DNA of 64,000 bases from Dehalococcoidia bacterium (GCA_965237475.1 OZ250140.1:2597877-2661876); one strand, 5' to 3'. Positions 3,358-37,919 are shown, counted from the stretch's first letter. Made by a program: numbers and translations. The notes: generated from the letters alone by a model not told the origin.

Positions 3358-3785
3358 CATCCTCTGAACAGGTCGGATGCCATCTCCCCCCGCGGAGCGG
3401 GGGGAGATGTCACGGAGTGACAGGGGGGGGGGCGAGCCCGCTCGCCCACATACAGCTGCGCAGGTGGGTCGGGACCGAAGCCCCCCTCTGCCCCCTGCCT
3501 GCGCAGGGGCAGGCTTCGGCATCTCCTCCCGCCGAGCGGGGGGAGAAGGGATTCGAGTTGTTCCGTGGATTCCGAGGAACGCTCCAAAGGACACCATCTC
3601 CCCCCGCTCTGCGGGGGGAGATGTCACGGAGTGACAGAGGGGGGCTGCCGCGCGTAATGCCGGCTGACCGCGACGCACTCCCCCTCTGCCTTCGGCATCT
3701 CCCCCTCGGGGGGCGATATTGGAAGGGGATTGGATCCCGCTGACCACTCGATGTGGTGAGGGGGTCCGACGTGTTCGGAGGATTC
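3358..3785. repeat. Cluster of palindromic REP/MITE-like elements (TCTCCCCCCGC-GAGC-GGGGGGAGA hairpins, GTCACGGAGTGACAG, a degenerate TCAATG-loop hairpin)
   Basis: The same modules recur at 5725-6655, 30275-30480, 42690-42866 and 58765-58990; each hairpin is an inverted repeat visible directly in the sequence. Confidence 0.8.
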
Positions 3786-4389: not shown

Positions 4390-5679
4390 ATGTTACGCGC
4401 TGGCGCACGACAGACGTTCGCCGCTTTCGGCGTGCCGGCGTTCCGGTTGCACTGGGCGTGCACGGTCGCGGCGTTCATCTCGTTCATGATGTCGTTCACG
4501 GTTCAGAGCGTGATCACGTATGAGCTGACTGGTTCGAACGCGAGCGTGGCGTTCGTGGCGGCGGGCAGCGGCGTGGCATGGTTCTTCGTGGGGCCGATCG
4601 CCGGGGCGCTGGCGGATCGGCTGCCGAAGCGGCGGCTGCTGGTCATCGCTCAGACGCTGATCGCGATCAACTTCGGCGTGCTCGCGTTCCTGGTGTTGAG
4701 CGATGACATCAGTGTGGCGTGGCTGACCGCGAGTAGCTTTCTGCTGGGCAGCTGCTTTGCGTTCACGGGGCCGACCCGGCGGGCGTACGTGGCCGACCTG
4801 GTGCCGAGCCGCCTGGTCGGCAATGCGGTGGTGTTGCTGCAGTCGGCGCTGAACTTCCCGCAGATCGTTGGGCCGGCGATCGCCGCGGGGCTGATCAGCA
4901 TCGCCTTTGTCGGCGCGGGCGGCGCCTACGTCTTCATGTTCGCCGTGCTCGCGCTGACCATCCTCTCGCTCGGGCTGATGCCGCAGGGGCCGCCGCGCAA
5001 CGTCATGCGGCGCGGCGTCTACCGCGAGATCGTGCTCGGGCTGCGCTATGCGGCGTCGCATTCGCGGATTCGGCTGTTGCTGGGCTCGCTGCTGCTGATC
5101 TCGGTGGCGGGCGGGTCGTATCAGATTCTGCTGCCAGGGTTGCTGGTGAACGCGCTGGGGGTGGAATCGGTGCAGCTTGGGCTGCTGCAGGCGTTCGCGG
5201 GAATTGGCTCGTTCACGGTGGGCGTGGCGGTTGCGGGGGTGGTGGGGACGCGCTGGTCGGGGCGGGTGATGTACGTCATGGCGGTGGGGTTCGGGCTCGG
5301 GGTGCTGCTGCTGGGGATTACGCCGAGCGTCGTGGTCGCGTTTCCGATCATGTTTCTGCTGGGGGCGGGCTTTAGCGCGTTTCAGGCGATCAATACGGCG
5401 GAGGTGTTGATTCAGGCGGATCCCGAGTACCACGGACGGCTGACTTCACTCACGTTTGTGCCGTTCGGGGTGCAGAGCATGGCGGGGCTGGCGTTCGGCA
5501 ATCTGGCGGACGGGATCGGGGAGCGCTCGATGCTGGTGATCATGGGCATCTCCGCGATGGTGATCAGCGTGGTGTCGGTTGCGCTCTACGAGCGTATCCG
5601 GGCCCCCGCCCGCACCACCCTGGCGCTCGCTCCCGACGAGCCGGGGGTCGCTCCGCCACCGTCGTCGCGCGCAGAGTGA
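4390..5679 (+). CDS. MFS transporter
   Basis: About 12 predicted hydrophobic helices; GPIAGALADRLPKRR loop motif between TM2 and TM3; transcribed divergently from the nitroreductase. Confidence 0.65.
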   Translation: MLRAGARQTFAAFGVPAFRLHWACTVAAFISFMMSFTVQSVITYELTGSNASVAFVAAGSGVAWFFVGPIAGALADRLPKRRLLVIAQTLIAINFGVLAFLVLSDDISVAWLTASSFLLGSCFAFTGPTRRAYVADLVPSRLVGNAVVLLQSALNFPQIVGPAIAAGLISIAFVGAGGAYVFMFAVLALTILSLGLMPQGPPRNVMRRGVYREIVLGLRYAASHSRIRLLLGSLLLISVAGGSYQILLPGLLVNALGVESVQLGLLQAFAGIGSFTVGVAVAGVVGTRWSGRVMYVMAVGFGLGVLLLGITPSVVVAFPIMFLLGAGFSAFQAINTAEVLIQADPEYHGRLTSLTFVPFGVQSMAGLAFGNLADGIGERSMLVIMGISAMVISVVSVALYERIRAPARTTLALAPDEPGVAPPPSSRAE

Positions 5680-5724: not shown

Positions 5725-6655
5725 ACGGATCAGGCCCCCCTCTGTCCCTACGGGACATCTCCCCCCGCGGAGCGGGGGGAGAGGGGATCCGACGTGCTCT
5801 GCCCTGCCCCGCGGGAGGAGAAGGGGAACCGGATTCCGCTGACCACTCAATGTGGTCAGCGGGGGGAGAGGGGATCCGACTTGTTCAGAGGATTCCTGGC
5901 AGAGGCTGTTGCAGAAACCCCATGTGCGTCATTCCCGCGCAGGCGGGAATCCATGCGACCACCCAAGATGTGCGAGCGGCTGCGTGGTGTTGACGGCCTT
6001 CCGGAAGGGCCGAGCCGCGATGGCGAGGATCCAGCGCCGTCGGCCGTTCGGGGCGCCAACGGGCATTGGTCGGCTCGCCTGGATTCCTGCCTGCGCAGGA
6101 ATGACGGAGGAGGGCGCAGGAATGACGGAGGAGGGCGCAGGAATGACGGAGGAGGGCGCAGGAATGACGGAGGAGGGCGCAGGAATGGCGGAGAAGGACG
6201 CACGGAATGACGCGAGAGGACGCACCGCACCACGGAGGAGGACTCACGGCGCCACTGAGGAGGACGCGCGGGGATGATGGGAGAGGGCGCGGGAGTGACG
6301 GAACACGGGGTTCTGAGACAGTCTCTGCACGGCGGGGGAGATGGCGAAGGTAGAGGGGGTCGGCCGCGACTCAGCGGCGTGGCTGTATCTGGTCGGACAG
6401 GATCAGGCCCCCCTCTGTCCCTACGGGACATCTCCCCCCGCGGAGCGGGGGGAGAGGGGATCCGACGTGCTCTGCCCTGTCCTGCGGGAGGAGAAGGGGA
6501 TCCGGATTCCGCTGACCACTCAATGTGGTCAGCGGGGGGAGAGGGGATCCGACCTGCTCTGCCCTGCCCCGCGGGAGGAGAAGGGGATCCGGATTCCGCT
6601 GACCACTCAATGTGGTCAGCGGGGGGAGAGGGGATCCGACTTCTTTGGCAGCCGG
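5725..6655. repeat. Large composite intergenic repeat region: an 88-bp minisatellite (1.7 copies at 5731-5880, 2.6 copies at 6404-6640) flanking REP family B (GTCATTCCCGCGCAGGCGGGAATCC) and a 21-bp tandem repeat
   Basis: CGGGGGGAGAGGGGATCCGAC recurs at 5771, 5859, 6442, 6532 and 6620 with 88-90 bp spacing, and the intervening sequence is nearly identical in every unit; the ORFs predicted here are spurious (they translate to ...SVIPAQAGIQ...). Confidence 0.8.
6104..6215. repeat. 21-bp tandem repeat GCAGGAATGACGGAGGAGGGC, about 5 copies (REP family B derived)
   Basis: Directly visible: gcaggaatgacggaggagggc x4, then diverged copies. Confidence 0.85.
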
Positions 6656-19704: not shown

Positions 19705-20246
19705 GCGGGGGACTCGCCTTCCTGGGCTTCGACCTGTTCCGGCGTGCGGTGGGTGCAGAGCGTGTTGCGCCCAATCGCCACCAGCTCGCGGTGCTGATTC
19801 GTGATTCGTTGCTCCGTCTCGATCCAGACCGACCGCGGGTCGAGCCGGATCGACTTCTCATAGACGTCGATGATCGACATCTGCACCGACAGGTGGTCGC
19901 CGACCCGAGCAGGCTGGAGGTACTCCCATTCGGTGTTCAGATTGATCATCCGGTCGCCGCGGGTCGGGATATCGACCATCAGCCGCATCGGATCGGCGGT
20001 GCTCGGCCAGACTCCGGCGCCCGCGAAATAGCGCGTCATCACCGGCGGAGCGATCACGGCGCCCCACCTGGTCGTCTTGGCGTATTCGGGGTCGAGGAAC
20101 AGCGGGTTGGCGTCCTCGACCATGTGGCAGTGCCGCCGGATGGCGTCGTACTCGACCGGGTAGCGCCCGCGCACGACAGCGGTCTTGCGCCCGATCCACT
20201 CGGAGCGGACTGCGTCGATGTCGTAGGGCACGGTCACACGCACCAT
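19701..20246 (-). CDS. MaoC N-terminal-like / FAS1-like dehydratase hot-dog protein; partner of the downstream MaoC gene (HadA/HadB- or ChsH1/ChsH2-like pair)
   Basis: 4-bp overlap with 19243..19704; hot-dog fold sequence features; start trimmed to MVRVTV. Confidence 0.5.
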   Translation of the reverse strand: MVRVTVPYDIDAVRSEWIGRKTAVVRGRYPVEYDAIRRHCHMVEDANPLFLDPEYAKTTRWGAVIAPPVMTRYFAGAGVWPSTADPMRLMVDIPTRGDRMINLNTEWEYLQPARVGDHLSVQMSIIDVYEKSIRLDPRSVWIETEQRITNQHRELVAIGRNTLCTHRTPEQVEAQEGESPA

Positions 20247-20462
20247 GGGTGGTCCCCAAGCCTTCGCTGAGCGAGGCGAGGGTAGCACTGGCCAAGCGTT
20301 GTGGGCGCGGCCGTTGGGGTTCTGCCCCTGAGGAGCGCTTTGGGAGGGGGATTCCGCAGCACACTCAATGTGTGCTGCGGGGGCCGAAGGGCTCGGGGCG
20401 GGACGCTGCCTCGCGCGGCAACCAGCTCGCGTGGGCGGCTGTCAGAAGTTTTCTCATGGCCT

Positions 20463-21839
20463 TTAGTTCTCCCGATGATCCTGGAACGAGCGGCGCCAGC
20501 TGACAGATGCAGCGATTTGCTCAAGTAGCGAAGCCGGCGAGGCTTTACCCTGACAGTCGTACACACAGCCGGTGTAGTGGCTGCGCTCGGACTCATAGTC
20601 GCGATGCGTGTCGAGGAATATCCAGACATCGTGATCCGTCGCGTCGTGCAAGCTGTACCCAACCCTGTCCCGGTCCCAGACGTGGATATGGCTCATGACG
20701 TAGTTGTGGTCCCCGTCGAATGTCGTGAGGACCGTGATCGAGTGCCCTGGAGGTACGTCAAATGCAGTGAAGGTGTCGTGCATAGTAAGATCATGACGCA
20801 TCCAGTAGGCGCCGGGCGCGAGGTTCGCGTATGATGGTGGTCCCCACATGCTCAGGACCGTTGGCGGCGGACAGTTGGGCAGATCGAGCGTTTCGAGGTC
20901 ATGATCCTCAACGTCGAGCAGCGCCGGCGGGACGCAGCCGGTGAGCGTATTGCCGCCGAGCCTGATCAGGTTCAGGTTGGTGAGGGATTCCAACTTCGTC
21001 GGAATCATGCCGGACAATGAGTTGCGGTCCAGCCGCAACTCGGTGAGTTCGCTGAGGTCACCCAGCCAACCCCAGATTTCACCGGTCAGACCGCGTTGTG
21101 CGAGATCGAGACCGGTCACTCGCATGGGTGTGCCGCCCAGCGTGACCCCTTGCCAATCGGCCGTGGGTCGGTCGACTGTCCAATCCAGGTCAGGCCCATC
21201 GCCCTCCAGCACGTCGCGCAGGGCGAGCAAGTACTCGCGATCGGCTAACAGGCCCGGATTGGATGGCGGTACGGCGATCTCGACATCTCCGTAGCGATAG
21301 GACCCTGTCGATGAGAGCCCGTCGTCGAGCAGCACCTGGACCATGCCCAGCGGCCGCCAAGTCATGCGCAAGGTCGGGCTGAAGTTGGGCGGATCGGGGT
21401 CAACATCGTGAACCTGAAGGAAGATAAGGCTGGGGTCGAGCGCCCGCTGCAGCACCCGCAGACCGATCCCGGCAATAAACACACCGCTCATCCTGTGTTG
21501 CGCGGGATGGAAGCCTGGCCAGCCATACGTTACCGTTACACCGCTTCTGCGAAAGACACCGGGATACGGATCCGGAACGTCGTAATACGGGTGGCTAATG
21601 CCGTAGTCGGGCAAACGGAACGTGCCCAGTTCGTCCCAGCGTGCGCCTGCCTGACGCGCGCTCAGCCACAGCTCCTGCGGGTCCGTCACTCGTTGCCAGA
21701 TGCGAAGTTGAAGGACGACCGTGTCAGTCTCGCCAGCTTCGGCGCCCGCCGCCGGCTGGGCCGAGGCGTGCCCCGCCAGGAGCGCGACGAGCAGAGTGGT
21801 CGCGATGGCCAGCGCTACCAGTGTGGCCGAGCGCCTCAC
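20463..21839 (-). CDS. Secreted leucine-rich-repeat protein (signal peptide, then LRRs with an N-cap WQGVTLGG...RVTGLDL and C-cap LDLPNC)
   Basis: N-terminal MRRSATLVALAIATTLLVALLAGHASA; LxxLxLxxNxLSG repeats; paralog of 22365..23696. Confidence 0.7.
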   Translation of the reverse strand: MRRSATLVALAIATTLLVALLAGHASAQPAAGAEAGETDTVVLQLRIWQRVTDPQELWLSARQAGARWDELGTFRLPDYGISHPYYDVPDPYPGVFRRSGVTVTYGWPGFHPAQHRMSGVFIAGIGLRVLQRALDPSLIFLQVHDVDPDPPNFSPTLRMTWRPLGMVQVLLDDGLSSTGSYRYGDVEIAVPPSNPGLLADREYLLALRDVLEGDGPDLDWTVDRPTADWQGVTLGGTPMRVTGLDLAQRGLTGEIWGWLGDLSELTELRLDRNSLSGMIPTKLESLTNLNLIRLGGNTLTGCVPPALLDVEDHDLETLDLPNCPPPTVLSMWGPPSYANLAPGAYWMRHDLTMHDTFTAFDVPPGHSITVLTTFDGDHNYVMSHIHVWDRDRVGYSLHDATDHDVWIFLDTHRDYESERSHYTGCVYDCQGKASPASLLEQIAASVSWRRSFQDHREN

Positions 21840-22142
21840 GGGCTTGTGTCCATCCAGATCGACTCGGCGAGGCGATCAAACAGGGACGCGACGTTGGTTG
21901 TTGCCGTCTGGCTGGCTGACACGATCTTAGGGTAGCATTCCTTGGCCGCCTCGAGGTCGAGGCGAATCCAGGCGTTGTGGGCGGCGTGGTTGGGGTTCTC
22001 CCGCTCAGGCGCTTCGCGTCAGCTCCCCCGCGCGGGGAGCGCTTTGGGAGGGGATTCCGCAGCACACTCAATGTGTGCTGCGGGGGGGAGCCATCAGAGG
22101 TCGCGGCTGTCAGAAGTTTCCTCACGGCAGTTATTCCTCCCA

Positions 22143-22270
22143 ATGGTGGCCGCGTGAGCGGTTCCAGCTGACAGATGCAGCGAGTTGATCAAGCAGCGAA
22201 GCGGGCGATGCCTCGGCTTGACAGTCGTACACATAGCCGGTGTAGTGGCGACGCTCGGCCTCAGCGGTCG
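22143..22270 (-). pseudogene. C-terminal remnant of a third LRR-family paralog
   Basis: Reverse-strand translation ERRHYTGYVYDCQAEASPASLLDQLAASVSWNR... matches the C-terminus HYTGCVYDCQGKASPASLLEQIAASVSWRR of 20463..21839; homology is lost upstream. Confidence 0.6.
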
Positions 22271-22364
22271 AAGGGTGCCGAGGAATCCTTGAGGACGAAC
22301 AGAAGCGCGCCGACTGATGCGAAGCACGCCGCTAAGACCAAGAGATGGAGGAGCTTTGATTTGT

Positions 22365-23696
22365 TCATGGCCATTCGAAATAACTCTGGTAGGTCTGTTT
22401 GTCTACCGTGGCGACGGTCGTCCACGCGGAGGCCGCGAGCTTTTCGATCCAGGCGGCCGGTGAGTATCCGCCGCGGCAGTCATAGATGCAGCCGGTGTAG
22501 TGACCGCGTTCGCGCTCGAGGGCGGTGTCCCAATCCCAAAACACGTATGCACTATGGTCGAACGGGTTGCGAACGGCGAGGCCCATGGCCATTCCACAAT
22601 CCGCAGATTCGAATATGTCCACGAGGTCTCCATCCAGTTCGCAAGTCGGGCCGCTCGGTTCGGGTCCGTACTGCGCGACGCTCAGGCGGGCCCATGGCCG
22701 GTCGATGACGATGACCATGTAGTCCTCAAGGTCGCTGTCGGACCATGCGATGCTATTTACATAGTGAGGGGCGGTCCCTGGCGGTTCGCCTAGATCCATC
22801 AGCACGGCGCATTCCTCCAGACCTGTGTCCGCCAGATCGTGCTGTGCCACTGACCACAGACCCGGTGGAGCACAGCCGCTCAACTCGTTGCCGCCCAGCC
22901 GCAGCATCGTCAGTTGTTTCAGCAACTGCATCTTCGTAGGGACGGTGCCGCTCAGTTGATTGCCATTCAGCTGCAATCCCTTCAGCTCCGACAGGTCCCC
23001 CAGATATCCCCAGATCTCACCCGCAAGATTGCGCTCCGTGAGGTCCAGGCCGGTGACGCGCGGCGGTGTTCCGGACAACGTGATGCCCTCCCACATTGCC
23101 GTCGGTGTGCCGACGCTCCAGTTCAGCGGCGGACGAGCGTCGAACACGTCCCGCAGCGCCAACAGATGCTCGCGGTCGCGCAGCAGCTCTGGGTTGCCGC
23201 GCGGTACGGTGATGCGCAGATCGCCGTAGCGCATGCGAGTCGCCTCGTCAGCTCCGTGGTCTAGTGGCAACCGTGTCTTTCCGAGCGGACGAAACGGATC
23301 TATATCGGTGATCCCGCGCCCGCTGAGGCAGGCTGAGGCACATGCCGCGACGTAGACGCGCTCCGGCGCAACGTCCTGTTGAACGATCCGCAGTCCTACG
23401 CCAGCCACGGAGACGTTGCCGTACCAGTGCCGCGACTGATCGTTCACCGCGTCCGACAACTGGTCGTTGATCAGCGGGACCCGCTCGAGCGCTTCCTCCG
23501 GATACCCGGGTACTTGCGCGCTCACCCACAACGACTCTGGCTCGTCAACGTCTTGCCACACCCGCAGATCGACGGTGACCGAGTCGAGCTGGAGGTCGCC
23601 CGGAGAGGTACATGCCGAGACCCCAGAGACGATCGCGACTAGAAGCGCGGCTGACGTGATCGGCCACCGTGCGAACGTGCGACGCTGGTTGCTCAC
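22365..23696 (-). CDS. Secreted leucine-rich-repeat protein, paralog of 20463..21839
   Basis: Same architecture (WEGITLSGTPPRVTGLDL...LSGTVP...LEEC); probable GTG start. Confidence 0.7.
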   Translation of the reverse strand: MSNQRRTFARWPITSAALLVAIVSGVSACTSPGDLQLDSVTVDLRVWQDVDEPESLWVSAQVPGYPEEALERVPLINDQLSDAVNDQSRHWYGNVSVAGVGLRIVQQDVAPERVYVAACASACLSGRGITDIDPFRPLGKTRLPLDHGADEATRMRYGDLRITVPRGNPELLRDREHLLALRDVFDARPPLNWSVGTPTAMWEGITLSGTPPRVTGLDLTERNLAGEIWGYLGDLSELKGLQLNGNQLSGTVPTKMQLLKQLTMLRLGGNELSGCAPPGLWSVAQHDLADTGLEECAVLMDLGEPPGTAPHYVNSIAWSDSDLEDYMVIVIDRPWARLSVAQYGPEPSGPTCELDGDLVDIFESADCGMAMGLAVRNPFDHSAYVFWDWDTALERERGHYTGCIYDCRGGYSPAAWIEKLAASAWTTVATVDKQTYQSYFEWP

Positions 23697-23963
23697 GGTG
23701 AGGCGTCCATCCAGATCGATTCGGCGAGTCGGTCGAAGAGGGCTGCGATGTCAGCTGTTCCCGTCTGGCTGGTTGACACGATCTTAGGGCAGCAATCCTC
23801 GGTCGCCTCGAGGTCGAGGCGAATCCAGGCGTTGTGGGCGGCGTGGTTGGGGTTCTCCCCCTCAGGCGCTTCGCGCCAGCGGAGCCTTTCGGGAGGGGAT
23901 TCCGCAGCACACTTAATGTGTGCTGCGGGAGGGAGCCTTTTGGGAGGGGATTCCGCAGCACAC

Positions 23964-24827
23964 TTAGTGTGTGCTGCGGGGGCCGAAGGGCTCGGGGCGG
24001 AAGGGGTCGTCGCGGGCGCGGAGGAAGGCGCCGAAGCCGCCGTCGCGGCGGGCTTGGTCGAGATGCTCGACCTCGGGGCCGTCGGCGGAGGCTTCGACGA
24101 TGGTCGAGAGCAGGGAGCCGACGTTGAGCGCGTTGCGCAGGCCCATCGCCTCGAGGCCGCGCGCGGTGATCAGCTTGTTGTAGCGAATCGAGTCGGAGGG
24201 GACACGCGCAAGCCGCTCGGCCAGCGCGTGGGACCGGTCCATGAGGTCCTCGGCGGGCGCGATCTCGTTGATCACGCCGATTCGCAGCGCCTCCTCGGCG
24301 TCGAAATGGTCGCCCGTCAGCGCGTAGCGATGCGCGACCTTCCAGCCGGCGAGAATCGCGAACAGCACCGACGAGTTCGAGACCATCCGCACCTCGGGCT
24401 GGGCGAACACGGCGCGATCGGACGCGATCGTGATGTCGGAGGCGAGCGCGTACCAGAACCCGCCGCCGATGCACCAGCCGTTGACCGCGGCGATAATCGG
24501 GGTCTCCAGGGTCATCAGGTGCATCATCATGTCGGGGTTGCGGGAGGAGAAGTGGTGCCAGCGGCGCAGGTGGGCGGAGACGGGCGTGCGCGGGCCGCCG
24601 ACGGCGCTGTCGATGCCGCCATCGATGTTGTAGCCGGAGGAGAAGGCGCGGCCGGCGCCGGTCACGATGATCGCGCGCGCCGAGGGGTCGGCGTTGGCCT
24701 CGTCGAGCGCGAGGTGGAACTCATCCTCGAGGGCCGGGGTGATCGCGTTTAGCGTCTCGGGGCGGTTCCAGGTGATGGTCACCACCGGCCCGTCCTGCTG
24801 GTAGAGCACGTTTTCGTAGTCGGGCAT
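23964..24827 (-). CDS. Enoyl-CoA hydratase/isomerase (crotonase) family
   Basis: ITWNRPETLNAI...IIVTGAGRAFSSGYNI oxyanion-hole motifs. Confidence 0.75.
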   Translation of the reverse strand: MPDYENVLYQQDGPVVTITWNRPETLNAITPALEDEFHLALDEANADPSARAIIVTGAGRAFSSGYNIDGGIDSAVGGPRTPVSAHLRRWHHFSSRNPDMMMHLMTLETPIIAAVNGWCIGGGFWYALASDITIASDRAVFAQPEVRMVSNSSVLFAILAGWKVAHRYALTGDHFDAEEALRIGVINEIAPAEDLMDRSHALAERLARVPSDSIRYNKLITARGLEAMGLRNALNVGSLLSTIVEASADGPEVEHLDQARRDGGFGAFLRARDDPFRPEPFGPRSTH

Positions 24828-24906
24828 GGTTTCGCTCCTTCTGCGCTGCACCAAGGTAGGCCAGATGGGGTAGGGCAGATGGGGTCTTGCGGGCGGTGGG
24901 GCCGGC

Positions 24907-25020
24907 GGGCGCTTAGGAGCCGTCGTCGGCGGGTGCGGCGGGGATCATTGCGTCGAAGAGCGCGGACAGCTCGGGGTGTCCCTCGGGGATGTGTCGGGCG
25001 AGTTCGGAGCCGTCGCGGCG
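24907..25020 (-). pseudogene. Short 3'-terminal remnant of a giant-protein paralog
   Basis: Roughly 85% nucleotide identity to 10690-10800; encodes ...SELARHIPEGHPELSALFDAMIPAAPADDGS*, matching the giant protein's C-terminus ...SELARHIPEGNTDLPALFDAMTPAAPADDGS. Confidence 0.6.
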
Positions 25021-25338: not shown

Positions 25339-26835
25339 TCACTCAACCTTGTATTCGACGCGATATGTCCCGTCCCCAGCGCACCCAATCTGGTTTTCAA
25401 CAAGCCACTGCGCATTTTCCTCCGCCACCGTTCTTGCCGGAGCAGGTCCCAGCACGAACGGACTCAACCCCGTCACGCAAGTGACGGTCGCGACCCATCC
25501 CGGCTGTTCGCTTGTTGCCCTGACCCCTGACTGACCACCTGTATGGCCCGATCTCGCCGCTGGAATGTTCACTCTCCAATCAAAGGCCACGGTCGCCCAA
25601 ATGCCGTAGGCATGTCCGTTCCGGAGTATAAACCGAGTGTTCAGAAACTCGGGCGCGTCTTTGGCATATATGCGCCAAACCATGTTTGCGACATCATACC
25701 ACACTGCATGACTGATCCTGTCCTCGTTATCGATCGCAATGTCGACCCGCGTCGCGAAACCGGGCCATATTATGTCGGTCAGTTCTCCTGCCTCCAAGCT
25801 GATTGTGGTAGTCTGGATGGAGATGACGACGGGGGTAACGGGCGCTCTCGGCGTTCCATACGCAGGATTACTTGGCCCGCCATGAACCGGGCCGCGAACG
25901 ACACGCAGTTCGATCACGTATTCCTGATCATTGGTCAGAGTCTCGATATCGAAGGTCTCTGCTTGTAGGTTAGGCAAGTCCATCTCCCGCCAATCCCCGC
26001 CATCGAGCCGATGTTGGTACCTGTCGCCCCTCCGCACTATTAGTGGCTTTTCCCAAGTGATACGCAGGCTCTCGTTCGTGGCCGTCGCCTGTAGCGCGGT
26101 TGGTTTTTTGGGAACGCCGTAATAGGCTACGAGAAAATCGGTCAAGTCGGTGTCCGTCAGGCGCGGCAGATTGCCCCCGGCAGTTACCGTGCAAGCATCG
26201 GTGATGGTATCGGTGTTCATCAGGGCGACGTGGTCCAGCTCCAAGTTTCCGCCGGGATCGTGGACAACCGGTGTGTACCCGCAATGATAATGCGACAAGC
26301 CCAGGACGTGCCCCAACTCATGGCCAAGGTCACGAACTAACTGACGATTGGTAGCGCTATCAGTGCTGGGTGTGTAATAGCTGGCAACGACATGAATGAA
26401 GGCCTTGCGCGTATACGTCTGCAGAGTCGGGTTGTAATGTGTGTGTTGTGCGCACAGCAGACCTGCCGCGGAACACGGGTTGATCGCAGGTCTTGACACC
26501 TCGACACTTGCAAGCTTGTCAGTGGATTCGGCGGTGCATTCGTCTCTATCGCTTTGGAAGACGAACAGGGGGGCATCGGTGTACGCTGCAGTCGCATCGT
26601 TCCAGATCCTGATGGCCTCCTCGGTCGCCAGGGGAAAGCCTGCGGAACAAGTGGGGATGCTCTCTGCGAGTTCGACGTTTCTGACTGTAATACTCGGGTG
26701 CAAGAGATAGGGACTTCGGTGTTCGTCTGTGTGACCCGACTTCGTGGTGGTGGCGTCGAGCAGGATTCCCAGCGCGAGCATCAGTAGGATTAGGGCCACT
26801 GCTTTCGCACTTGCGATGTGGTGGCGGGGTGTCAT
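25339..26835 (-). CDS. Secreted zinc metalloprotease of the metzincin clan (HELGHVLGLSH) with a C-terminal FN3/Ig-like region
   Basis: HExxHxxGxxH motif; N-terminal signal/TM; start overlaps the stop of 26832..28895 by 4 bp, so the two are probably co-transcribed. Confidence 0.7.
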   Translation of the reverse strand: MTPRHHIASAKAVALILLMLALGILLDATTTKSGHTDEHRSPYLLHPSITVRNVELAESIPTCSAGFPLATEEAIRIWNDATAAYTDAPLFVFQSDRDECTAESTDKLASVEVSRPAINPCSAAGLLCAQHTHYNPTLQTYTRKAFIHVVASYYTPSTDSATNRQLVRDLGHELGHVLGLSHYHCGYTPVVHDPGGNLELDHVALMNTDTITDACTVTAGGNLPRLTDTDLTDFLVAYYGVPKKPTALQATATNESLRITWEKPLIVRRGDRYQHRLDGGDWREMDLPNLQAETFDIETLTNDQEYVIELRVVRGPVHGGPSNPAYGTPRAPVTPVVISIQTTTISLEAGELTDIIWPGFATRVDIAIDNEDRISHAVWYDVANMVWRIYAKDAPEFLNTRFILRNGHAYGIWATVAFDWRVNIPAARSGHTGGQSGVRATSEQPGWVATVTCVTGLSPFVLGPAPARTVAEENAQWLVENQIGCAGDGTYRVEYKVE

Positions 26836-28895
26836 GGCGTTTGGCCTTCGACGCTCGCGGATGCGGCAATGTAGTCGAACACATCCTCGATAGTCACGCC
26901 GTCAGCAGTCCGGGCGTTGGACCCTATATGCCTGGAAGATACTGTTCCGTCCCCGATTTCGAGGCAGAGAAAAGCTTCATCGGCGGTAGCGGCCAAGCAG
27001 AGGGACATTCCGTTGTAGTTGACGATCGTTCCGCCCCACTCAAGGTGATGAGCGGTAGTAGGAATAGAGAAGGCCAGGTGCGGATTTCCACCTGGTCTGG
27101 TCGAGAATTGATAGCGTCCCGGTGCGAATGGTAGGCCGCTGAGGGCATCGTCCACGGGCGCCGGTGCGGTAGGCGAAGGGGGATTGGTGACCGTGAAGCG
27201 AAGGGTAACGACAATGTCGCCGAGTTGCGGTTTTAGTCCGGGCCGGAGCGGCGGCTTCGCCGCTCGGAGGTCGAAGGTGAGTTCCGATGCCGCGCCTTCA
27301 AATTCAGTCGGCGTGAAGGTGTAGGTCGTGCCGACTGGAGGGATCAGTCGCTCGTAGGTGGTGGGCGAGGGACGCGCGAGGGGCGTCCGTTGCAGGTAGA
27401 AGCGGGTGTAGCCCGCCGGCAGCCGGGCGGCCGTCACGACGGTGACCTGCTGACCGCGCTCGACCTGGTAGCGGCCGTTTGAGTCGGGCTGGATGAGGAG
27501 CGAGTCGGGGATGTCCTGGACCTGGGCGTAGTCGTCCGGGGCGCCTTTGTAGACGGCGCGGATGCAGTCTGCATCGGTCGCCGTGGCGCAGCGGTCCGTT
27601 GGCAGCGGCGTGAATGCCGCTGTGACGGTCTTGTCGGGGTACATCTCCAGGACGCAGGTGGTGGCCGTGCCGGCGCAGTCGCCGCCCCAGCCCCCGAAGC
27701 TGTGCGTCGCATCGTTCCAGCTCGCCGTCAACGTCACTTCGGAGTCTTCTTCGTGGGTGGTCGCGCCGGCCGGGTCGACGCTGCCGCCGGCCCCTGCGGT
27801 GGCGGTCAGGGTGTAGGTCGGCAGCGGGGTCTCGGGCGTCGCCGGTGCGTCCGCGGCGCAGTCGGGCAGGTTCAAGTGCCCCAGGTCATTGGTCCGCACC
27901 CGCCGCAAGCGCGGCGGCACGCAGCCGCTGATCCCGCTGTTGCCCTTCACATACAGCCGGCTCAACTCACGCAAGTTCGTCAACTGCTGCGGCAGCGAAC
28001 CCGTCAAGCGGTTGTGCTCCAGGCGCAGATTGTCGAGTTGCGTCAGGTTGCCCAACTGGGTCGGAAGCGGACCCGAGAGCTGGTTGCGCGCCAGATGCAG
28101 CCAGCTCAGGTTCACGAGCCGGCCCAGGCGCGTCGGGATCGAGCCGGTCAGCCGATTGCCGTCCAGGTAGAGGTCCGCGAGGCCGGTGAGGTTGCCCAGC
28201 TGCGGCGGGATCGAACCGGTCAGCCCGACCCCCTCCGGCAGCGGCCGCGGTCCGCTCAGGATCAGGTCGGTCAGCTGCGGGCCGATCGCGCCCAGCTCGG
28301 GCGGGATCGGGCCGGTCAGCCGGTTGCCGGCGAGGTTGAGATCGGTCAGCCGGGTGAGCTGTCCCAGTTCCGCCGGGATCGAACCGGTGAGCCGGTTGCG
28401 CCAGGCCAACTGCAACTCAGTCAGCCCGGTCAGCCCGCCCAAGGCGGGCGGGATCGTGCCGTCAATGCCCGCCCGATCCAGGTTCAGCACCGTCACTCGC
28501 TGGACGCCGTCCACCGTGCCGACCGTGATGCCGGTCCACTGATTGAGCTGGCGCTCGGCGCTCCAGTTGAGCGTGGCCGTGCCGCGCAATGTGTCCTTGG
28601 CCGCCAGCAGCACGGCGCAGTCTGCGACCAGGTCGGGGTTGTCGGTTGGGCTCGGTACGACGGTGCCGTTCGCGCAGGGCTCCGTCGCCGACGCGGGCTG
28701 GGGGCCAAGGCCCGAGGTCAGGAGGATCGTCGCCACGAGCGCAGCGATCATCAGGAGGAGCGCCGTGGAGGCCGCGTAGCGCTTCCAGCTGGGGGTCGCT
28801 GCCTGTCCGCCTGCGTCCTCGGCGCGCCGCGCCCTCGTCAGCCGGGCGCGCAGCGCCGCCAAGCCAGCCAGAATCGCGCGCGTGACTTCAGACAT
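26832..28895 (-). CDS. Secreted LRR + InlB-B-repeat-like + DRC-domain protein; its N-terminal ~420 aa are a near-copy of the giant protein's N-terminus
   Basis: Nucleotide segment 27820-28900 is roughly 90% identical to 17000-18080; C-terminal ...DVFDYIAASASVEGQTP. Confidence 0.75.
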   Translation of the reverse strand: MSEVTRAILAGLAALRARLTRARRAEDAGGQAATPSWKRYAASTALLLMIAALVATILLTSGLGPQPASATEPCANGTVVPSPTDNPDLVADCAVLLAAKDTLRGTATLNWSAERQLNQWTGITVGTVDGVQRVTVLNLDRAGIDGTIPPALGGLTGLTELQLAWRNRLTGSIPAELGQLTRLTDLNLAGNRLTGPIPPELGAIGPQLTDLILSGPRPLPEGVGLTGSIPPQLGNLTGLADLYLDGNRLTGSIPTRLGRLVNLSWLHLARNQLSGPLPTQLGNLTQLDNLRLEHNRLTGSLPQQLTNLRELSRLYVKGNSGISGCVPPRLRRVRTNDLGHLNLPDCAADAPATPETPLPTYTLTATAGAGGSVDPAGATTHEEDSEVTLTASWNDATHSFGGWGGDCAGTATTCVLEMYPDKTVTAAFTPLPTDRCATATDADCIRAVYKGAPDDYAQVQDIPDSLLIQPDSNGRYQVERGQQVTVVTAARLPAGYTRFYLQRTPLARPSPTTYERLIPPVGTTYTFTPTEFEGAASELTFDLRAAKPPLRPGLKPQLGDIVVTLRFTVTNPPSPTAPAPVDDALSGLPFAPGRYQFSTRPGGNPHLAFSIPTTAHHLEWGGTIVNYNGMSLCLAATADEAFLCLEIGDGTVSSRHIGSNARTADGVTIEDVFDYIAASASVEGQTP

Positions 28896-28948
28896 CGCTC
28901 CACCTCTCACCGCACTACGCTGCCCCGACCTCGGGAGGGGAGCCTAGC

Positions 28949-30508: not shown

Positions 30509-31447
30509 ATGCGAGGTGTTGGCGTCATCGAATTCGGCGGTCCGGAGGCTCTGCAGGTCGTTGAGCTACCGGAGGTCCACGCGGGGCCGGGCGAGCTGCG
30601 GCTGCGCGTCCACGCGGCGACCGTCAACCCGACTGACACGTTCGTGCGCGGCGGCGGGCGCGCGGAGGCGCTGCGGAAGGACCCGCCGCCCTACATCCCG
30701 GGCATGGACGCGGCCGGCGTGATCGACGAGATCGGGCCCGACACCGAGACCGGCCTCGCGATCGGCGACGCGGTGATGGCGATGGTGATACCGAGCGGCA
30801 GCCACGGCGCGTACCGCGAGAGCATCGTGCTGTCGGCCGACGCCGTCGCCCGCGCGCCGGCCGGCGCCTCGCACGCCGAGGCCTCGACGTTGCCGATGAA
30901 CGGTCTCACGGCGCGGCTGTCGCTGGATCAGCTGGCGTTGCAGCCGGGCCAGACGATCGCCGTGACGGGTGCGGCGGGCTGCTACGGCGGCTACATGGTC
31001 CAGCTCGCCAAGGCCGATGGTCTGCGCGTGATCGCAGACGCGTCAGCCAGCGACGAACAGTTGGTGCGTGACCTGGGCGCCGACATCGTGGTGCCGCGCG
31101 GCGACGACATCTCCGAGCAGATCAGGAAGGTCGCGCCGGACGGGGTTGACGCGCTGGCCGACGGCGCGGTGCAGAACGAACTCGCGGTTGGCGCGATTCG
31201 CGACGGCGGGCAGTTCGCCAGCGTTCGCGGCTGGCGCGGGAACGGCGAGCGCGAGATCACGTTCCACGTGACGTTGGTCTTCAGCTACGACCATCGCGCC
31301 GACCTGATCGACGAGCTGCGCCGGCAGACCGAGGCCGGGCTGGTGACGATGCGGGTCGCAGCGACGTATCCGCCGGAGGAGGCGGCCGAGACGCATCGCA
31401 GGATGAAGGCGGGCGGCACGCGGGGCCGGTGCGTGATCACGTTCTAG
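30509..31447 (+). CDS. Zn-independent MDR-superfamily oxidoreductase (NADPH:quinone reductase-like)
   Basis: GGPEALQVVELPEVHAGPGELRLRVHAATVNPTD ... TGAAGCYGGYMVQLAK. Confidence 0.65.
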   Translation: MRGVGVIEFGGPEALQVVELPEVHAGPGELRLRVHAATVNPTDTFVRGGGRAEALRKDPPPYIPGMDAAGVIDEIGPDTETGLAIGDAVMAMVIPSGSHGAYRESIVLSADAVARAPAGASHAEASTLPMNGLTARLSLDQLALQPGQTIAVTGAAGCYGGYMVQLAKADGLRVIADASASDEQLVRDLGADIVVPRGDDISEQIRKVAPDGVDALADGAVQNELAVGAIRDGGQFASVRGWRGNGEREITFHVTLVFSYDHRADLIDELRRQTEAGLVTMRVAATYPPEEAAETHRRMKAGGTRGRCVITF

Positions 31448-33900: not shown

Positions 33901-33912
33901 GTGCGCGAGTCC

Positions 33913-35115
33913 TTATTTGACATTCCGGATCGATGCCATGATCTGATCGAACAGGAGATCGGCCTCGGGCGACTTGGCGAAGCGGCCGAACTCCTCGCCG
34001 GTCCCCGGATTGATGTGGAGCGCCGAGCCGGTTCGCGGCTCGTTCAGCGCAATCCCACGGGATGGGAGGTGGGGGCGGGCTGGGTCACGTTCCATCTCGT
34101 ACAAACCGACGAGAACGATCAAGCTGCCGGCAGGTACGTCGATCACGTATCGCACGCCCGGGTAGAGGCGATAGGTTCCTTTCCCGGCCGGCTCGCCAGG
34201 CAGCAGCAGCTGTACGCCATCTGGAGCAGGAACCCCGTGTGGGACCCGCCAGACGAAGTAGACATCCTTGGCCGCGCCGGGATCTGTGACCAGGCCACCG
34301 CAGCTCCCGCCGTAGCGGTTGACGTTCTCGAGGCCGAAGGTGCGCGTGCTCGCCGCCGCCGCGATGCTCGCGACCTTGAAGCGGAACCCGCAATCGAGGC
34401 CGTTCGTGCGATAGTCGAAGCTGTGACCGATCTGCACCGTGTCGTAGAAGTCGGCGCGGGATGCCCCATTCGCGTCCGTCGGGTGAATGCGTAACTCCAC
34501 GCTCACTTGTGCGGAAGAGCCATAGTTGCCGATCGCGCTTGCTGCATCCCCGGCAGTTTTGAGGAAGGCGTAGCTGCCGGGGGTGGCCGGTGCGCCGGTG
34601 ATGTCGAGCGTGTCGTAGCGCAGGGTCGGGACCAGGAAATTGGTCGTGACCACGACATCGCCGAGTTCGGGCTTCTGTCCCGGTCGCGGTAGCGGTCGCG
34701 GTCGAGCCTCCGTGAGGTTGAAGGTGATCAGGTTTGAACCAGCCTCATTTGCGGCCACAGTGAAGGTGTAGGTCGTGCCGACCGGTTGAATGAGCTGCTC
34801 GAATGAGGTCGGACTGACGGTGACCTGCAGCGGTTGGCGCTGGAGGTAGAAGCGGGTGTAGTCGGCGGGCAGCGGGGCGGCGGTGACGACGGTGATCTGC
34901 TGGCCGCGCTCGACCTGGTAGCGGCCGTCGTCGTCGGGCTGGATGAGGAGCGAGTCGGGGATGTCCTGGACCTGGGCGTAGTCGTCCGGGGCGCCTTTGT
35001 AGACGGCGCGGATGCAGTCGGCGTCGGTCGGCGTCGTGCAGCGGTCGGCCGGCAGCGACGTGAAGAACATGATCACAGCGAAGCACACGGTGGCGACGAG
35101 TCGCGAGTAGGTCAT
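33913..35115 (-). CDS. Secreted DRC-domain protein with a conserved ~250-aa C-terminal domain (400 aa)
   Basis: MTYSRLVATVCFAVIMFF...ADRCTTPTDADCIRAVYKGAPDDY; C-terminal ...LFDQIMASIRNVK; 12-bp gap to the downstream paralog. Confidence 0.7.
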   Translation of the reverse strand: MTYSRLVATVCFAVIMFFTSLPADRCTTPTDADCIRAVYKGAPDDYAQVQDIPDSLLIQPDDDGRYQVERGQQITVVTAAPLPADYTRFYLQRQPLQVTVSPTSFEQLIQPVGTTYTFTVAANEAGSNLITFNLTEARPRPLPRPGQKPELGDVVVTTNFLVPTLRYDTLDITGAPATPGSYAFLKTAGDAASAIGNYGSSAQVSVELRIHPTDANGASRADFYDTVQIGHSFDYRTNGLDCGFRFKVASIAAAASTRTFGLENVNRYGGSCGGLVTDPGAAKDVYFVWRVPHGVPAPDGVQLLLPGEPAGKGTYRLYPGVRYVIDVPAGSLIVLVGLYEMERDPARPHLPSRGIALNEPRTGSALHINPGTGEEFGRFAKSPEADLLFDQIMASIRNVK

Positions 35116-35128
35116 CGTTGTTGAGTGT

Positions 35129-36430
35129 CTAGTTCACCGTGCGGATCGACGCCATGATCTGATCGAACAAGGCTCCCGCTGCGGACGACGTGATGTAGCG
35201 GTAAACCTCTGTGCAGGCGTCCGGATCGATGTGCAGCGACGAGTCGTTCGCCTCGTTGAGGAGAACGGCGGTTGCATGCGGAAGGTCGGGGTTGTCAGGG
35301 TCTGGTTCTGACTCGGCGATCGAGCCATAAACGATCACACTGCCGGCGGGTACGGCGATGGTGCACGGCACTCCATCGTCGATGCGGTATGTTCCCTCGC
35401 CGACCGGCTCGCCGTAGAGCAGGACCCGGACGCCCCCCGGAGCCTCGAGTCCAGGGCGGACCCGCCACGCGAAGTCCACTGGCTTTGCCGCGCCAGGATC
35501 ATCAACGAATTCACCGCACGACCCGCCGTAGTCGGCTACGTCTGCAATGCCGAACGTTCTGGGACTCGCCGCCTCGCCGACGCTGGTCACCTTGAAGCGG
35601 AACCCGCAACGGAGACCATTCGTCCGGTAGTCAAAGACGTCACCGACCTGCACCGTGTCGAAGAAGGCCGCGCGCGATGTCCCGCTCGCGTCCGTTAGGT
35701 GGACGCGCAGTTCGACGCTTCCGTAGGCGGATGCACTGAAGTTGCCAATGGCGCTTGCTGCATCCCCGGCCGTCTTGAGGAATGCGTAGCTGCCGGGGGT
35801 GGCCGCGGCGCCGGTGATGTCGAGCGTGTCGTAGCGGAACTTCGTGGTCTCGATATAGAAGACCGCGCTGACGACCGTATCCCCGAGTTGCGGCTTCAGA
35901 CCGGGCTGTGGCGGCGGCTTGGCTGCCGTCAGGTCGAACGCGATCAGAATGGAGCCCTCGAAGTCGGTGGTGAGCGTGAACGTGTAGGTCGTACCCAGCG
36001 GCGGGATCAGCCGCATGTCCGTTGTCGGTGGGCGGCCCGTCACCGGACGGACTTGCAGGTCGAAGCGGGTGTAGCCGGCGGGCAGCGGGGCGGCCGTCAC
36101 GACGGTGATCTGCTGGCCGCGCTCGACCTGGTAGCGGCCGTCGTCGCCGGGCTGGATGAGGAGCGAGTCGGGGATGTCCGGGACCTGGGTGTAGTCGTCC
36201 GGGGCGCCGCGGTAGACGGCGCGGATGCAAGTGGGGTCGGTCGGTGTCGTGCAACGGTCCGGCGGCATCGGGGTGACCGGGGTGTCCGCCGCATCGCGGG
36301 CCGAGTCCTGCGAAGTCTGCTGCGCTACGGAGGTGGGCTGCGGGGCGGCGTTGGAGGTCAGGAGGATCGTGGCCGCCACGGCGGCGGCCAGCACGAACGT
36401 GGCGGCGAGGGCTGCGTAGCGCATCGGCAT
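35129..36430 (-). CDS. Secreted DRC-domain protein, paralog (433 aa)
   Basis: Signal anchor MRYAALAATFVLAAAVAATILL; DRC domain; C-terminal ...LFDQIMASIRTVN. Confidence 0.7.
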   Translation of the reverse strand: MPMRYAALAATFVLAAAVAATILLTSNAAPQPTSVAQQTSQDSARDAADTPVTPMPPDRCTTPTDPTCIRAVYRGAPDDYTQVPDIPDSLLIQPGDDGRYQVERGQQITVVTAAPLPAGYTRFDLQVRPVTGRPPTTDMRLIPPLGTTYTFTLTTDFEGSILIAFDLTAAKPPPQPGLKPQLGDTVVSAVFYIETTKFRYDTLDITGAAATPGSYAFLKTAGDAASAIGNFSASAYGSVELRVHLTDASGTSRAAFFDTVQVGDVFDYRTNGLRCGFRFKVTSVGEAASPRTFGIADVADYGGSCGEFVDDPGAAKPVDFAWRVRPGLEAPGGVRVLLYGEPVGEGTYRIDDGVPCTIAVPAGSVIVYGSIAESEPDPDNPDLPHATAVLLNEANDSSLHIDPDACTEVYRYITSSAAGALFDQIMASIRTVN

Positions 36431-36448
36431 CAGGGTCTCCTCACCGCG

Positions 36449-36613
36449 ACGGTTCAGCCTGCGGCGGGACGCGACGGGCGGCGACTGTTGCGGTCACCTG
36501 GTCGGCCTCGACGGTTGTGGGGCCTGGCATGCCGAGCGGGGTCAGCGCCGTAATCAGCATGACTACCACGAAGCACAAGACGGCGACGGATCGGGAGTAG
36601 GTCATGGTGAGTG
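36449..36613 (-). pseudogene. 54-aa N-terminal (signal-peptide) fragment of a further DRC-family paralog
   Basis: Translation MTYSRSVAVLCFVVVMLITALTPLGMPGPTT... matches the MTYSRLVATVCFAVIMFF N-termini and then terminates. Confidence 0.5.
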
Positions 36614-36614
36614 C

Positions 36615-37919
36615 TTACTGCCGACGGATCGATGCGATGAGCTGTTCGAACAGTGTGCTCGGATGCGTCCCGATGATGTAGATTTGGCCCGTATGCCCGT
36701 TCGAGGGATCGATGTGGATCACGGAGCCCGTATCGACGTCTTCCAGCACCAGGGTGCTCGTTGGTTGGTCAGGCCGGTTTACGTCCGGTTCGTTGATAGC
36801 GACCCCGTGGTATATGATTCTCATGCCAGCAGGAACGTCGATCACCCACCGCCAGTATGTGTCAATTCGATAGGTTCCCTGACCGACAGGCTCGCCGTTG
36901 AGCAACACGCGCACTCCGTCTGCACCAAGGACGCCAGGCCGCACGCGCCAGATGAACTCGACCGGCTTAGCGGCGCCGGGGTCGTCGATGAAGCTGCCAC
37001 ACCCCCCGCCGTAAGAGCCTGCGTCTTCAATGCCGAACGTCCTCGGACCCGTCGTTGTCCCGATGCTCGTTACGTTGAAGCGGAACCCGCAATCGAAGCC
37101 GTTCGTCCGGTAGTCGAACGCGTCACCGACTTGGACGATGTCGTAGAAGTCCGCGCGCGAGGCCCCGCCCGCATCGGTTGGGTGGACGCGCAACTCGACG
37201 CTTCGGAGGGCGGAAACGCTGAAGTTGCCGATCGCGGTCGATGCGTCGCCGGCGGTCTTGAGGAAGGCGTAGCTGCCGGGGGTGGCCGCGGCGCCGGTGA
37301 TGTCGAGCGTGTCGTAGCGCAGGGTCGGGACCAGGAACTCGGTCGTGACCACAACATCGCCGAGTTCGGGCTTCTGTCCCGGTCGCGGTAGCGGGCGCGG
37401 TCGAGCCTCCGTCAGGTTGAAGGTGATCAGGTTTGAACCAGCCTCATTTGCGGCCACAGTGAAGGTGTAGGTCGTGCCGACCGGTTGAATGAGCTGCTCG
37501 AATGAGGTCGGACTAACGGTGACCTGCAGCGGTTGGCGCTGGAGGTAGAAGCGGGTGTAGTCGGCGGGCAGCGGGGCGGCGGTGACGACGGTGATCTGCT
37601 GGCCGCGCTCGACCTGGTAGCGGCCGTCGTCGTCGGGCTGGATGAGGAGCGAGTCGGGGATGTCCTGGACCTGGGCGTAGTCGCCTGGGGCGCCTTTGTA
37701 GACGGCGAGGACGCAAGTGGGGTCGGTCGGTGTCGTGCAGCGGTCCGGCGGCTGCGGCTTGGCCGGAGTGGCGGGCGCGTCGCGGGACGAGTCCTGCGAA
37801 GTCTGCTGCGCTACGGAGGCGGGCTGCGGGGCGGCATCGGAGGTCAGGAGGATCGTGGCCGCCACGGCGGCGGCGAGCACGAACGTGGCGGCGAGGGCTG
37901 CGTAGCGCATCCGCATCAA
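36615..37919 (-). CDS. Secreted DRC-domain protein, paralog (434 aa)
   Basis: MRYAALAATFVLAAAVAATILL; DRC domain; C-terminal ...LFEQLIASIRRQ. Confidence 0.7.
   Translation of the reverse strand: MMRMRYAALAATFVLAAAVAATILLTSDAAPQPASVAQQTSQDSSRDAPATPAKPQPPDRCTTPTDPTCVLAVYKGAPGDYAQVQDIPDSLLIQPDDDGRYQVERGQQITVVTAAPLPADYTRFYLQRQPLQVTVSPTSFEQLIQPVGTTYTFTVAANEAGSNLITFNLTEARPRPLPRPGQKPELGDVVVTTEFLVPTLRYDTLDITGAAATPGSYAFLKTAGDASTAIGNFSVSALRSVELRVHPTDAGGASRADFYDIVQVGDAFDYRTNGFDCGFRFNVTSIGTTTGPRTFGIEDAGSYGGGCGSFIDDPGAAKPVEFIWRVRPGVLGADGVRVLLNGEPVGQGTYRIDTYWRWVIDVPAGMRIIYHGVAINEPDVNRPDQPTSTLVLEDVDTGSVIHIDPSNGHTGQIYIIGTHPSTLFEQLIASIRRQ

Follow-up and report, generated by a model that had tools for sequence, protein, structure and literature searches.

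A dispersed hairpin repeat with a conserved loop and a covarying stem, probably a REP/BIME-like family, at a leucine-rich repeat gene array in Dehalococcoidia

We have analysed a 64,000-nt stretch from a Dehalococcoidia bacterium (GCA_965237475.1 OZ250140.1:2597877-2661876; called the window below, with positions counted from its first letter and a G+C content of about 67%), in which genes for leucine-rich repeat (LRR) proteins are accompanied by copies of a short hairpin. A preliminary description, made from the sequence alone, took the hairpin to be a structured RNA or a protein-recognition element belonging to an amplified LRR gene unit. As that description stated, there are two intact LRR paralogs, LRR1 and LRR2, with open reading frames (ORFs) of 458 and 443 aa that are 35% identical, and a C-terminal remnant of a third that is 70% identical to LRR1 residues 416-458 (Table 1). 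They lie between the gene for an enoyl-CoA hydratase (crotonase) and a dehydratase gene pair (FAS1-like/MaoC), which is followed by a ketopantoate reductase gene, so that a metabolic operon is interrupted. The G+C content at third codon positions is 0.74-0.75 in LRR1 and LRR2 compared with 0.86-0.93 in the flanking metabolic genes. LRR1 has a hydrophobic N-terminus that, read by eye, may be a signal peptide. Its orthologue in the related chromosome OZ244584.1 has 88% nucleotide identity; LRR2 is absent from that chromosome.

The repeated unit is about 43 nt long and consists of (G)GGAWYC-GGATT, an 11-bp stem, the loop TCAAT and then GGGG. A position matrix places the conserved span between about -7 (GGGAWYC) and about +35 (GGG), and the palindrome proper is the 27-nt hairpin formed by the stem and its 5-nt loop. 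This is a very stable hairpin as single-stranded DNA (-14.6 to -15.8 kcal/mol, z about -6 to -7) or as RNA (-24 kcal/mol). Eight units were found in the window with cmsearch, four of type B and four of type A (one of them diverged), and the motif CACTYARTGTG occurs seven times against 0.12 expected. The type B stem (CCGCAGCACAC/GTGTGCTGCGG) is present on the + strand with hairpin starts at 20349, 22052, 23897 and 23948, and the type A stem (CCGCTGACCAC/GTGGTCAGCGG) on the same strand with starts at 5831, 6504 and 6591, which agrees with the sites first claimed for the two stem types. The stems differ in three base pairs (T-A to A-T, A-T to C-G and C-G to A-T), every one compensated, and have the 5' flank GGATTCCGC, the closing CAC/GTG and the 3' G-run in common. 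The earlier statement that loop and flanks are identical while the stems differ by compensatory changes holds for the stems, the 5' flank and the G-run but not for the loop: TCAATG is present in two of the four local hairpins only, the others having TTAATG (23897) and TTAGTG (23948), and the true loop is the 5-nt TCAAT on an 11-bp stem.

The pattern GGATTCCGC-N7-TCAATG-N7-CGG was searched for in 185,579 species-representative genomes and matched 78 stretches. About 55 of these come from two complete Dehalococcoidia chromosomes from metagenome-assembled genomes, OZ244584.1 and OZ253504.1; the other 23 are single, non-palindromic matches in unrelated taxa and are due to chance. The genome-wide search proposed in the preliminary description therefore yields multiple palindromic matches in two Dehalococcoidia chromosomes only. 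Two matches in viral contigs are identical and non-palindromic, again chance, and metagenome contigs of the Joint Genome Institute gave none. In its syntenic parts the window has 88-93% identity to OZ244584.1, syntenic blocks of the two chromosomes match each other at 84-94% (mostly 90-94%), and exact-protein look-ups located the same locus on metagenome contigs in the European Nucleotide Archive (ENA). The family is thus restricted to a narrow group of high-GC Dehalococcoidia comprising the two chromosomes, the window and the ENA relatives.

A covariance model (R1; 43 positions, 11 pairs) was applied to about 480 kb. Together with a relaxed search it recovered about 150 copies, at least 80 and at least 62 in the two chromosomes and eight in the window; these counts are lower bounds and amount to at least 60-80 per genome. 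The copies fall into subtypes A to F, of which type A is the commonest. The stems are CCGCAGCACAC in B, CCGTTGAGCAC in C, CCGTCGGCCAC in D, CCGTCGCCCAC in E and CGGTCGGCCAC in F, with a variant A' (CCGCTGACCGC/GCGGTCAGCGG). Over 37 distinct variants, 94.3% of stem cells pair, compared with 27-57% in slid controls. Double-sided changes are seen at six of the 11 stem pairs (33 cells), and a count from pair types implies at least nine separate compensated substitutions. Stem covariation scores 0.307, compared with 0.110 for shuffled alignments, and none of 500 shuffles reached the observed value. The TCAAT loop is kept in 130 of 150 copies, and the apical CAC-TCAAT-GTG and the 5' flank are fixed across subtypes while the stem varies by compensated changes.

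The part of the preliminary description that set the hairpin apart from a neutral repeat is upheld by these data across the genomes sampled, in that the fold is constrained. The structured-RNA part is not: the hairpin is not a discrete structured RNA but one member of a dispersed family with REP/BIME-type organisation (REP, repetitive extragenic palindrome; BIME, bacterial interspersed mosaic element), and the family is not specific to LRR genes. Covariation by itself cannot tell an RNA from a single-stranded DNA hairpin. Additionally, replication template switching in quasipalindromes can give compensated changes without selection (PMC8794818). The repeats could in that case have neither function nor trans-acting partner, the hairpins being made and kept perfect by template switching alone and spread only by local slippage and segmental duplication. 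Template switching produces compensated stem changes, transversion pairs included, in a single event (PMC8794818). Most copies are held in direct tandem arrays, two extra local copies come from segmental duplication, and no mobilising enzyme was found by a motif regex for REP-associated tyrosine transposases (RAYTs) or by tblastn. Template switching, however, is a mutational process and not an element family, and it does not account for the fixed asymmetric TCAAT loop, the closing CAC/GTG and the non-palindromic GGATT flank across A to F. Nor does it account for dispersal to about 50 separate intergenic sites per genome, or for orthologous sites that keep identical units although the intergenic DNA around them is no longer the same. 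We consider functionless repeats of this kind unlikely.

Of 142 copies placed against heuristic gene calls, 133 fall between genes. Spaces between convergent genes hold more of them than expected (39 of 123, 32%, compared with 68 of 332 intergenic spaces, 20%), and spaces between divergent genes hold fewer. The check for orientation bias advised earlier found copies in both orientations relative to the flanking genes, 45 opposite and 25 the same. Genes with hairpins on both sides are ordinary ones, encoding a ClC channel, a sigma-factor fragment and surface proteins. In six doublets a type A and a type C unit are joined tail to tail by the linker GGGATCCGGATC, always with a 43-nt offset, and hairpin units are interleaved with other palindromic families, for example CTCCCCCCGC-N-GCGGGGGGAG and GTCGCGCAGCGAC. 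Copy number at orthologous sites in genomes that are about 90-93% identical was 1 versus 6, 2 versus 0, 3 versus 4, 2 versus 3 and 5 versus 3, with 1 versus 1 at three further sites and 1 versus 0 at several. The repeat content is sometimes swapped wholesale while the flanking genes align.

A second palindromic family, CTCCCCCCGC-N3-4-GCGGGGGGAG, has the foot CTCCCCCCGC in common with the hairpin. It is found in the window at 3378-3412, 3590-3625, 5760-5785, 6433-6458, about 30345, about 42700 and 58795-58972, and at one orthologous site (L063 versus L073; L numbers denote stretches of the related DNA) it takes the hairpin's place. A 21-nt tandem repeat, GCGCAGGAATGACGGAGGAGG, adjoins the palindrome GGATTCCTGCCTGCGCAGGAATG in two separate intergenic regions (6072-6312 and 52325-52392).

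Taken together, the data suggest, with a probability that we put at roughly 0.7, that the hairpin is the unit of a lineage-specific REP/BIME-like family without the GTAG tag. It is a short palindrome with a stable stem-loop, high-copy, dispersed, extragenic and lineage-restricted, as general definitions of REP/BIMEs and untagged REP-like elements have it (PMC3733652, PMC6006769), and its turnover and organisation match published REP/BIME behaviour (PMC2817692, PMC3733652, PMC6006769). With the REP/BIMEs of Escherichia coli and the REP/REPIN-RAYT systems (REPIN, REP doublet forming hairpins) of Pseudomonas and Stenotrophomonas it shares a GC-rich palindrome in the 20-40 nt class and tens to hundreds of extragenic copies. 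Like the E. coli REPs (cf. Y, Z1 and Z2) it has subfamilies with related but distinct stems, and like BIMEs it forms fixed-linker clusters and two-subtype inverted doublets, A/C here and Y/Z in E. coli. Mosaics with other motifs, lineage restriction and fast copy-number turnover are further points of likeness to BIMEs and REPINs.

Several observations weigh against this assignment. The hairpin foot carries neither GT[AG]G (GTAG or GTGG), the 5' guide tetranucleotide of REP/REPIN-RAYT systems, nor CGTC; the flanks are GGATT on the 5' side and GGGG on the 3' side. The determinant here is the apical loop with the GGATT flank, and a conserved apical loop instead of a conserved foot is unlike the RAYT mode of recognition. 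A regex for the HUH and Y motifs and tblastn with E. coli TnpA_REP (query verified against PDB entry 4ER8) found no RAYT/Y1 HUH transposase of this Chloroflexota (Dehalococcoidia) host in the window or in some 0.5 Mb of related sequence, which covers about 7% of each relative's genome. There was also no transposase among the hairpin-flanked genes or the 20 window ORFs scanned against Pfam. Adjacent pairs are direct in 54 of 64 cases, with periods of 43-51 nt and some of 65 and 90 nt, and the inverted pairs include the six A/C doublets, whereas pairs in alternating orientation are typical of BIMEs and REPINs. No clean insertion with an empty site was seen. The one empty-site candidate, a unit of about 50 nt flanked by GCTCCCC, comes from a paralogous comparison and is fitted equally well by microhomology deletion.

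We have filed the family as untagged REP-like, a class that is recognised but unexplained in the literature (PMC3733652). The untagged REP-like elements and the REPs with a CGTC tag that were described by Di Nocera et al. (2013, PMC3733652) are likewise palindromic, with no GTAG tag and no identified dedicated transposase; their sequences are unrelated to ours, and the CGTC repeats have a conserved tetranucleotide of their own that is absent here. In the arrays, periods of 43, 46-48, 50, 51 and 65 nt are found, mostly not multiples of three. The MIRUs (mycobacterial interspersed repetitive units) are 40-100 bp repeats in variable-number tandem arrays, not hairpin-defined, that lie between operon genes and run over the stop codon of the preceding gene. 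The present family may be likened to them in its unit size, its variable tandem arrays, its place between operon genes and its stop-codon overlap, and differs in being hairpin-defined and in its periods.

The hairpin could instead act as RNA, as a stabiliser, processing site or protein-binding stem-loop on the strand that reads GGAUUCC...UCAAU...GGGG, with selection on the RNA fold. The enrichment between convergent genes, i.e. at 3' ends, would fit such a role, and so would the decay of type B units. In degenerate type B units from four genomes the changes are A to G in the 5' arm or C to U in the 3' arm only; the G.U pairs that result can form on the forward strand alone, and none of 18 type B units has a change in the 3' arm segment GTGTGCTG. 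Folded as forward RNA, one such degenerate unit reaches -21.4 kcal/mol, compared with -5.9 for the reverse RNA and -6.3 for DNA. A wobble intermediate and the compensated form also coexist, CCGCTGACCGC being found with both GTGG... and GCGG.... The type B decay is a hint of constraint at the RNA level or on one strand, from events that are few and not independent. Across all subtypes, however, the asymmetry is weak (20 forward G.T versus 12 A.C), and a general strand-specific wobble bias did not hold up. Five of about ten compensated changes are transversion pairs, which cannot arise through a wobble intermediate; they are compatible with template switching in a single step inside a DNA palindrome (PMC8794818) or with selection between copies as these propagate. 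The two-way orientation of copies relative to genes also speaks against an RNA role, and at the LRR/crotonase locus the forward strand is antisense to the operon. Rfam 15 gave no match in the window at gathering thresholds and none in 20200-24100 at E values up to 1. A promoter/terminator scan found no promoter consensus and, in 19500-25000, no terminator-like site; on either strand the hairpin is followed by a G-run or GGAATCC. A functional RNA element is in our judgement quite unlikely. A further reading, in which a REP-like family without a RAYT is recognised through the apical CAC-UCAAU-GUG loop and the GGAUUCC flank and at least the type B array at the crotonase/LRR locus is a strand-specific RNA hairpin, is doubtful; the strand-specific part follows from the decayed units pairing through G.U on one strand only.

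At the crotonase gene the repeat overlaps the end of the coding sequence. The stop codon (TAA, minus strand, 23966-23964) lies inside the loop of the first hairpin, and this is so in four of four genomes (L062 7017-7019, L081 2434-2436 and L080 5696-5698 in the others). The loop variants read ATTGA, ATTAA and ACTAA on the gene strand, each of which keeps an in-frame stop, and the last four to five crotonase codons (PRSTH) are encoded by the hairpin arm. The type B array begins exactly at this stop and has six units in OZ244584.1, two in the window, four in L080 and three in L081. LRR gene number differs as well, with one in OZ244584.1, two and a remnant in the window and two or three in L080 and L081. 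In L080 (4833-5698) two ORFs take the place of a single crotonase gene.

That each LRR unit of the window is bounded by hairpins, and that LRR content varies from one to three genes among close relatives, could mean that the hairpins are recombination sites, attC-like or of the terminal-repeat type of miniature inverted-repeat transposable elements (MITEs) and insertion sequences (ISs), which mobilise the LRR genes. In L081, however, three tandem LRR genes have hairpins at the crotonase end only and none between them, an arrangement for which we rejected the integron cassette reading, and most copies elsewhere flank unrelated genes or nothing. RYYYAAC/GTTRRRY core sites were not found by inspection, and no integrase, transposase or other recombinase is encoded by the 20 window ORFs scanned against Pfam. 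The 27-nt hairpin does not correspond to an attC site of 57-141 bp with R''/R' core sites. We saw no element that was consistently enclosed by inverted copies. Two units in inverted orientation form a 43-nt doublet or else stand 125-206 nt apart in an irregular mosaic, and the mosaics share no internal sequence. The preliminary description had set its proposal against identity with a known IS or MITE terminal repeat; the hairpin is not one, although its REP/BIME-type organisation brings it close to a known repeat class. Recombination sites that mobilise the LRR genes are very unlikely.

The repeated block that accompanies the LRR genes is real (21835-22023 versus 23692-23880, 87-89% identical), as is a partial copy at about 20292-20336. 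It was first thought to follow each LRR copy, but since both genes are encoded on the minus strand its place is upstream of them. Nor do block and hairpin form one conserved functional unit, the block being a mosaic of other repeats and a probable gene remnant. On the gene strand its first 50-70 nt are dispersed palindromic units and the remaining 160 nt or so occur at this locus only. The latter carry an open frame whose TGA, in block 1, overlaps the GTG start of LRR1. ORFs of 59-62 aa with the same C-terminus as the block peptide precede LRR genes in relatives. In a profile comparison (hhalign) the peptide weakly matched the C-terminal 50 or so residues of the LRR proteins as a family (E 7e-4, probability 26%), and BLASTP against LRR1 was not significant (E = 6). 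From these sequences the frame is probably the 3' remnant of another LRR paralog, in what would be a head-to-tail, translationally coupled array. The two blocks are 89% identical and the adjacent genes 35%, which suggests that the flank, and not the genes, was recently duplicated or converted. In OZ244584.1 the block ORF is frameshifted at a C-run (L062, about 6592-6600). This frameshift and the crotonase split in L080 could be real decay or long-read homopolymer errors.

A common 3' tail (22103-22142) adjoins the C-terminal remnant. The duplication of a crotonase 3' fragment that had been reported exists, with 22-mer starts at 20380 and 23979 instead of 20383 and 23983, and belongs to a longer duplicated segment (20338-20415 versus 23937-24014, 86% identical). 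The succession of crotonase end, hairpin, mosaic and remnant start is repeated at both ends of the LRR array. Hairpin and crotonase fragment were therefore duplicated as one segment, and the extra local hairpins arose by segmental duplication. At the site in OZ244584.1 that is orthologous to 20342..20384 the crotonase fragment is kept and the hairpin is absent.

Table 1. Coordinates of the LRR genes, blocks, hairpin units and neighbouring features. Positions refer to the window unless an L number is given.
Feature	Position	Strand	Remarks
LRR1, 458 aa	20463..21839	-	Weak Pfam LRR_8 and LRR_1 matches
LRR2, 443 aa	22365..23696	-	35% identical to LRR1; weak Pfam LRR match
C-terminal remnant of third LRR paralog	22143..22270	-	tblastn 70% to LRR1 residues 416-458; repeat 81%
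Block 1, locus-specific part	21836..21997	-	Open frame ENPNHAAHNAWIRLD...LFDRLAESIWMDTSP*, no start codon
Block 1, mosaic part	21998..22044		Palindromic units (GCTCCCCCGCGCGGGGAGC and neighbours); blastn >25 loci, often tandem
Block 2	23693..23889	-	Same probable remnant (23696-23857) and linker, upstream of LRR2; 89% nt and 80% aa identity to block 1
Partial block copy (...NPNGRAHNAW...)	20292..20336	-	blastn 80% over 45 nt
Type B unit, CCGCAGCACAC-TCAAT-GTGTGCTGCGG	20342..20384	+	cmsearch 58.2 bits; between LRR1 3' end and dehydratase gene
Type B unit, loop TCAAT	22045..22087	+	cmsearch 60.0 bits; upstream of LRR1
Type B unit, loop TTAAT	23890..23932	+	cmsearch 54.8 bits
Type B unit, loop TTAGT	23941..23983	+	cmsearch 50.5 bits; crotonase stop codon inside loop
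Type A unit, CCGCTGACCAC-TCAAT-GTGGTCAGCGG	5824..5866	+	cmsearch 73.6 bits; convergent intergenic region between MFS and peptidase S9 genes
Type A unit	6497..6539	+	cmsearch 72.8 bits
Type A unit	6584..6626	+	cmsearch 72.8 bits
Diverged type A unit, GGATCCCGCTGACCAC-TCGAT-GTGGTGAGGGG	3725..3767	+	cmsearch 40.6 bits
Enoyl-CoA hydratase (crotonase)	23964..24854	-	ECH_1, 9.6e-42
FAS1-like/MaoC-type dehydratase subunit	19701..20246	-	Gene downstream of LRR array
Crotonase 3' fragment, duplicated	20381..20401		21 nt, adjoins hairpin; also L062 ~5096-5112
A/C doublets	L036 1313-1395; L048 1081-1163; L049 6491-6573; L061 1102-1184 and 6347-6429; L042 2683-2765		
Degenerate type B units	L062 6753-6942; L080 5679-5874; L081 2417-2562		5'-arm positions 5, 8, 10

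Under the REP/BIME-like reading, a trans-acting factor would recognise the hairpin together with its apical and flank sequence. This might be a single-stranded-DNA nuclease or transposase, or a host DNA/RNA-binding protein, and only copies that keep the fold would be propagated or retained. One-step compensated changes may be aided by template switching inside the palindrome. Local multiplication by slippage or unequal recombination would then give the tandem arrays and their rapid gain and loss. At the locus described here, an old type B array at the crotonase 3' end would supply the crotonase stop codon, and the other two type B copies would derive from segmental duplication of crotonase 3' fragment, hairpin, mosaic, remnant, LRR gene and tail rather than from independent insertion. 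By offering homologous sequence, the repeats are likely to let the LRR array expand and contract.

A full-text literature search found no description of REPs in this Dehalococcoidia group, and the data document a REP/BIME-like repeat system in a high-GC Dehalococcoidia lineage. It offers a clean case of a DNA repeat family whose stem covaries while the loop stays fixed, and a caution for those who search for RNA motifs, because the covariation here marks a repeat family and not an RNA gene. The points of interest are the missing GTAG tag, the failure to find a RAYT, the loop-centred conservation and the wobble-only decay of type B. If a RAYT is truly lacking, the family joins the untagged REP-like repeats, whose mode of spreading is poorly understood; if recognition is through the loop and without a RAYT, a novel hairpin-binding or hairpin-mobilising protein in Chloroflexota would be implied. 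The repeats also mark a hotspot, where a variable array of one to three LRR genes with hydrophobic N-termini is inserted in a crotonase-dehydratase operon.

Other parts of the window are also rich in paralogous and repeated sequence. A 2482-aa ORF (10690..18138, - strand) with LRR, InlB B-repeat and fn3 domains contains thirteen tandem 39-nt (13-codon) units at 11578-12279. Long repeats (16366-17570 versus 27241-28393) are common to the 5' parts of this giant surface-protein gene and of a 692-aa LRR gene (26832..28910), including a 111-nt stretch that is 100% identical (17292-17402 and 28115-28225), which suggests recent duplication or gene conversion. The region 31444-37919 holds an 818-aa gene and, after it, a tandem series of four paralogs (33913..37919, - strand; 400-434 aa, in places 67-86% identical), and with the LRR genes these make up a large island of paralogous genes. 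The InlB B-repeat domain of the 818-aa gene suggests surface proteins. Finally, the window encodes three luciferase-like monooxygenase paralogs (451-2654 and 9497-10693), several alpha/beta hydrolases and a family III CoA-transferase, a gene content that we take to be typical of SAR202-type Chloroflexota.

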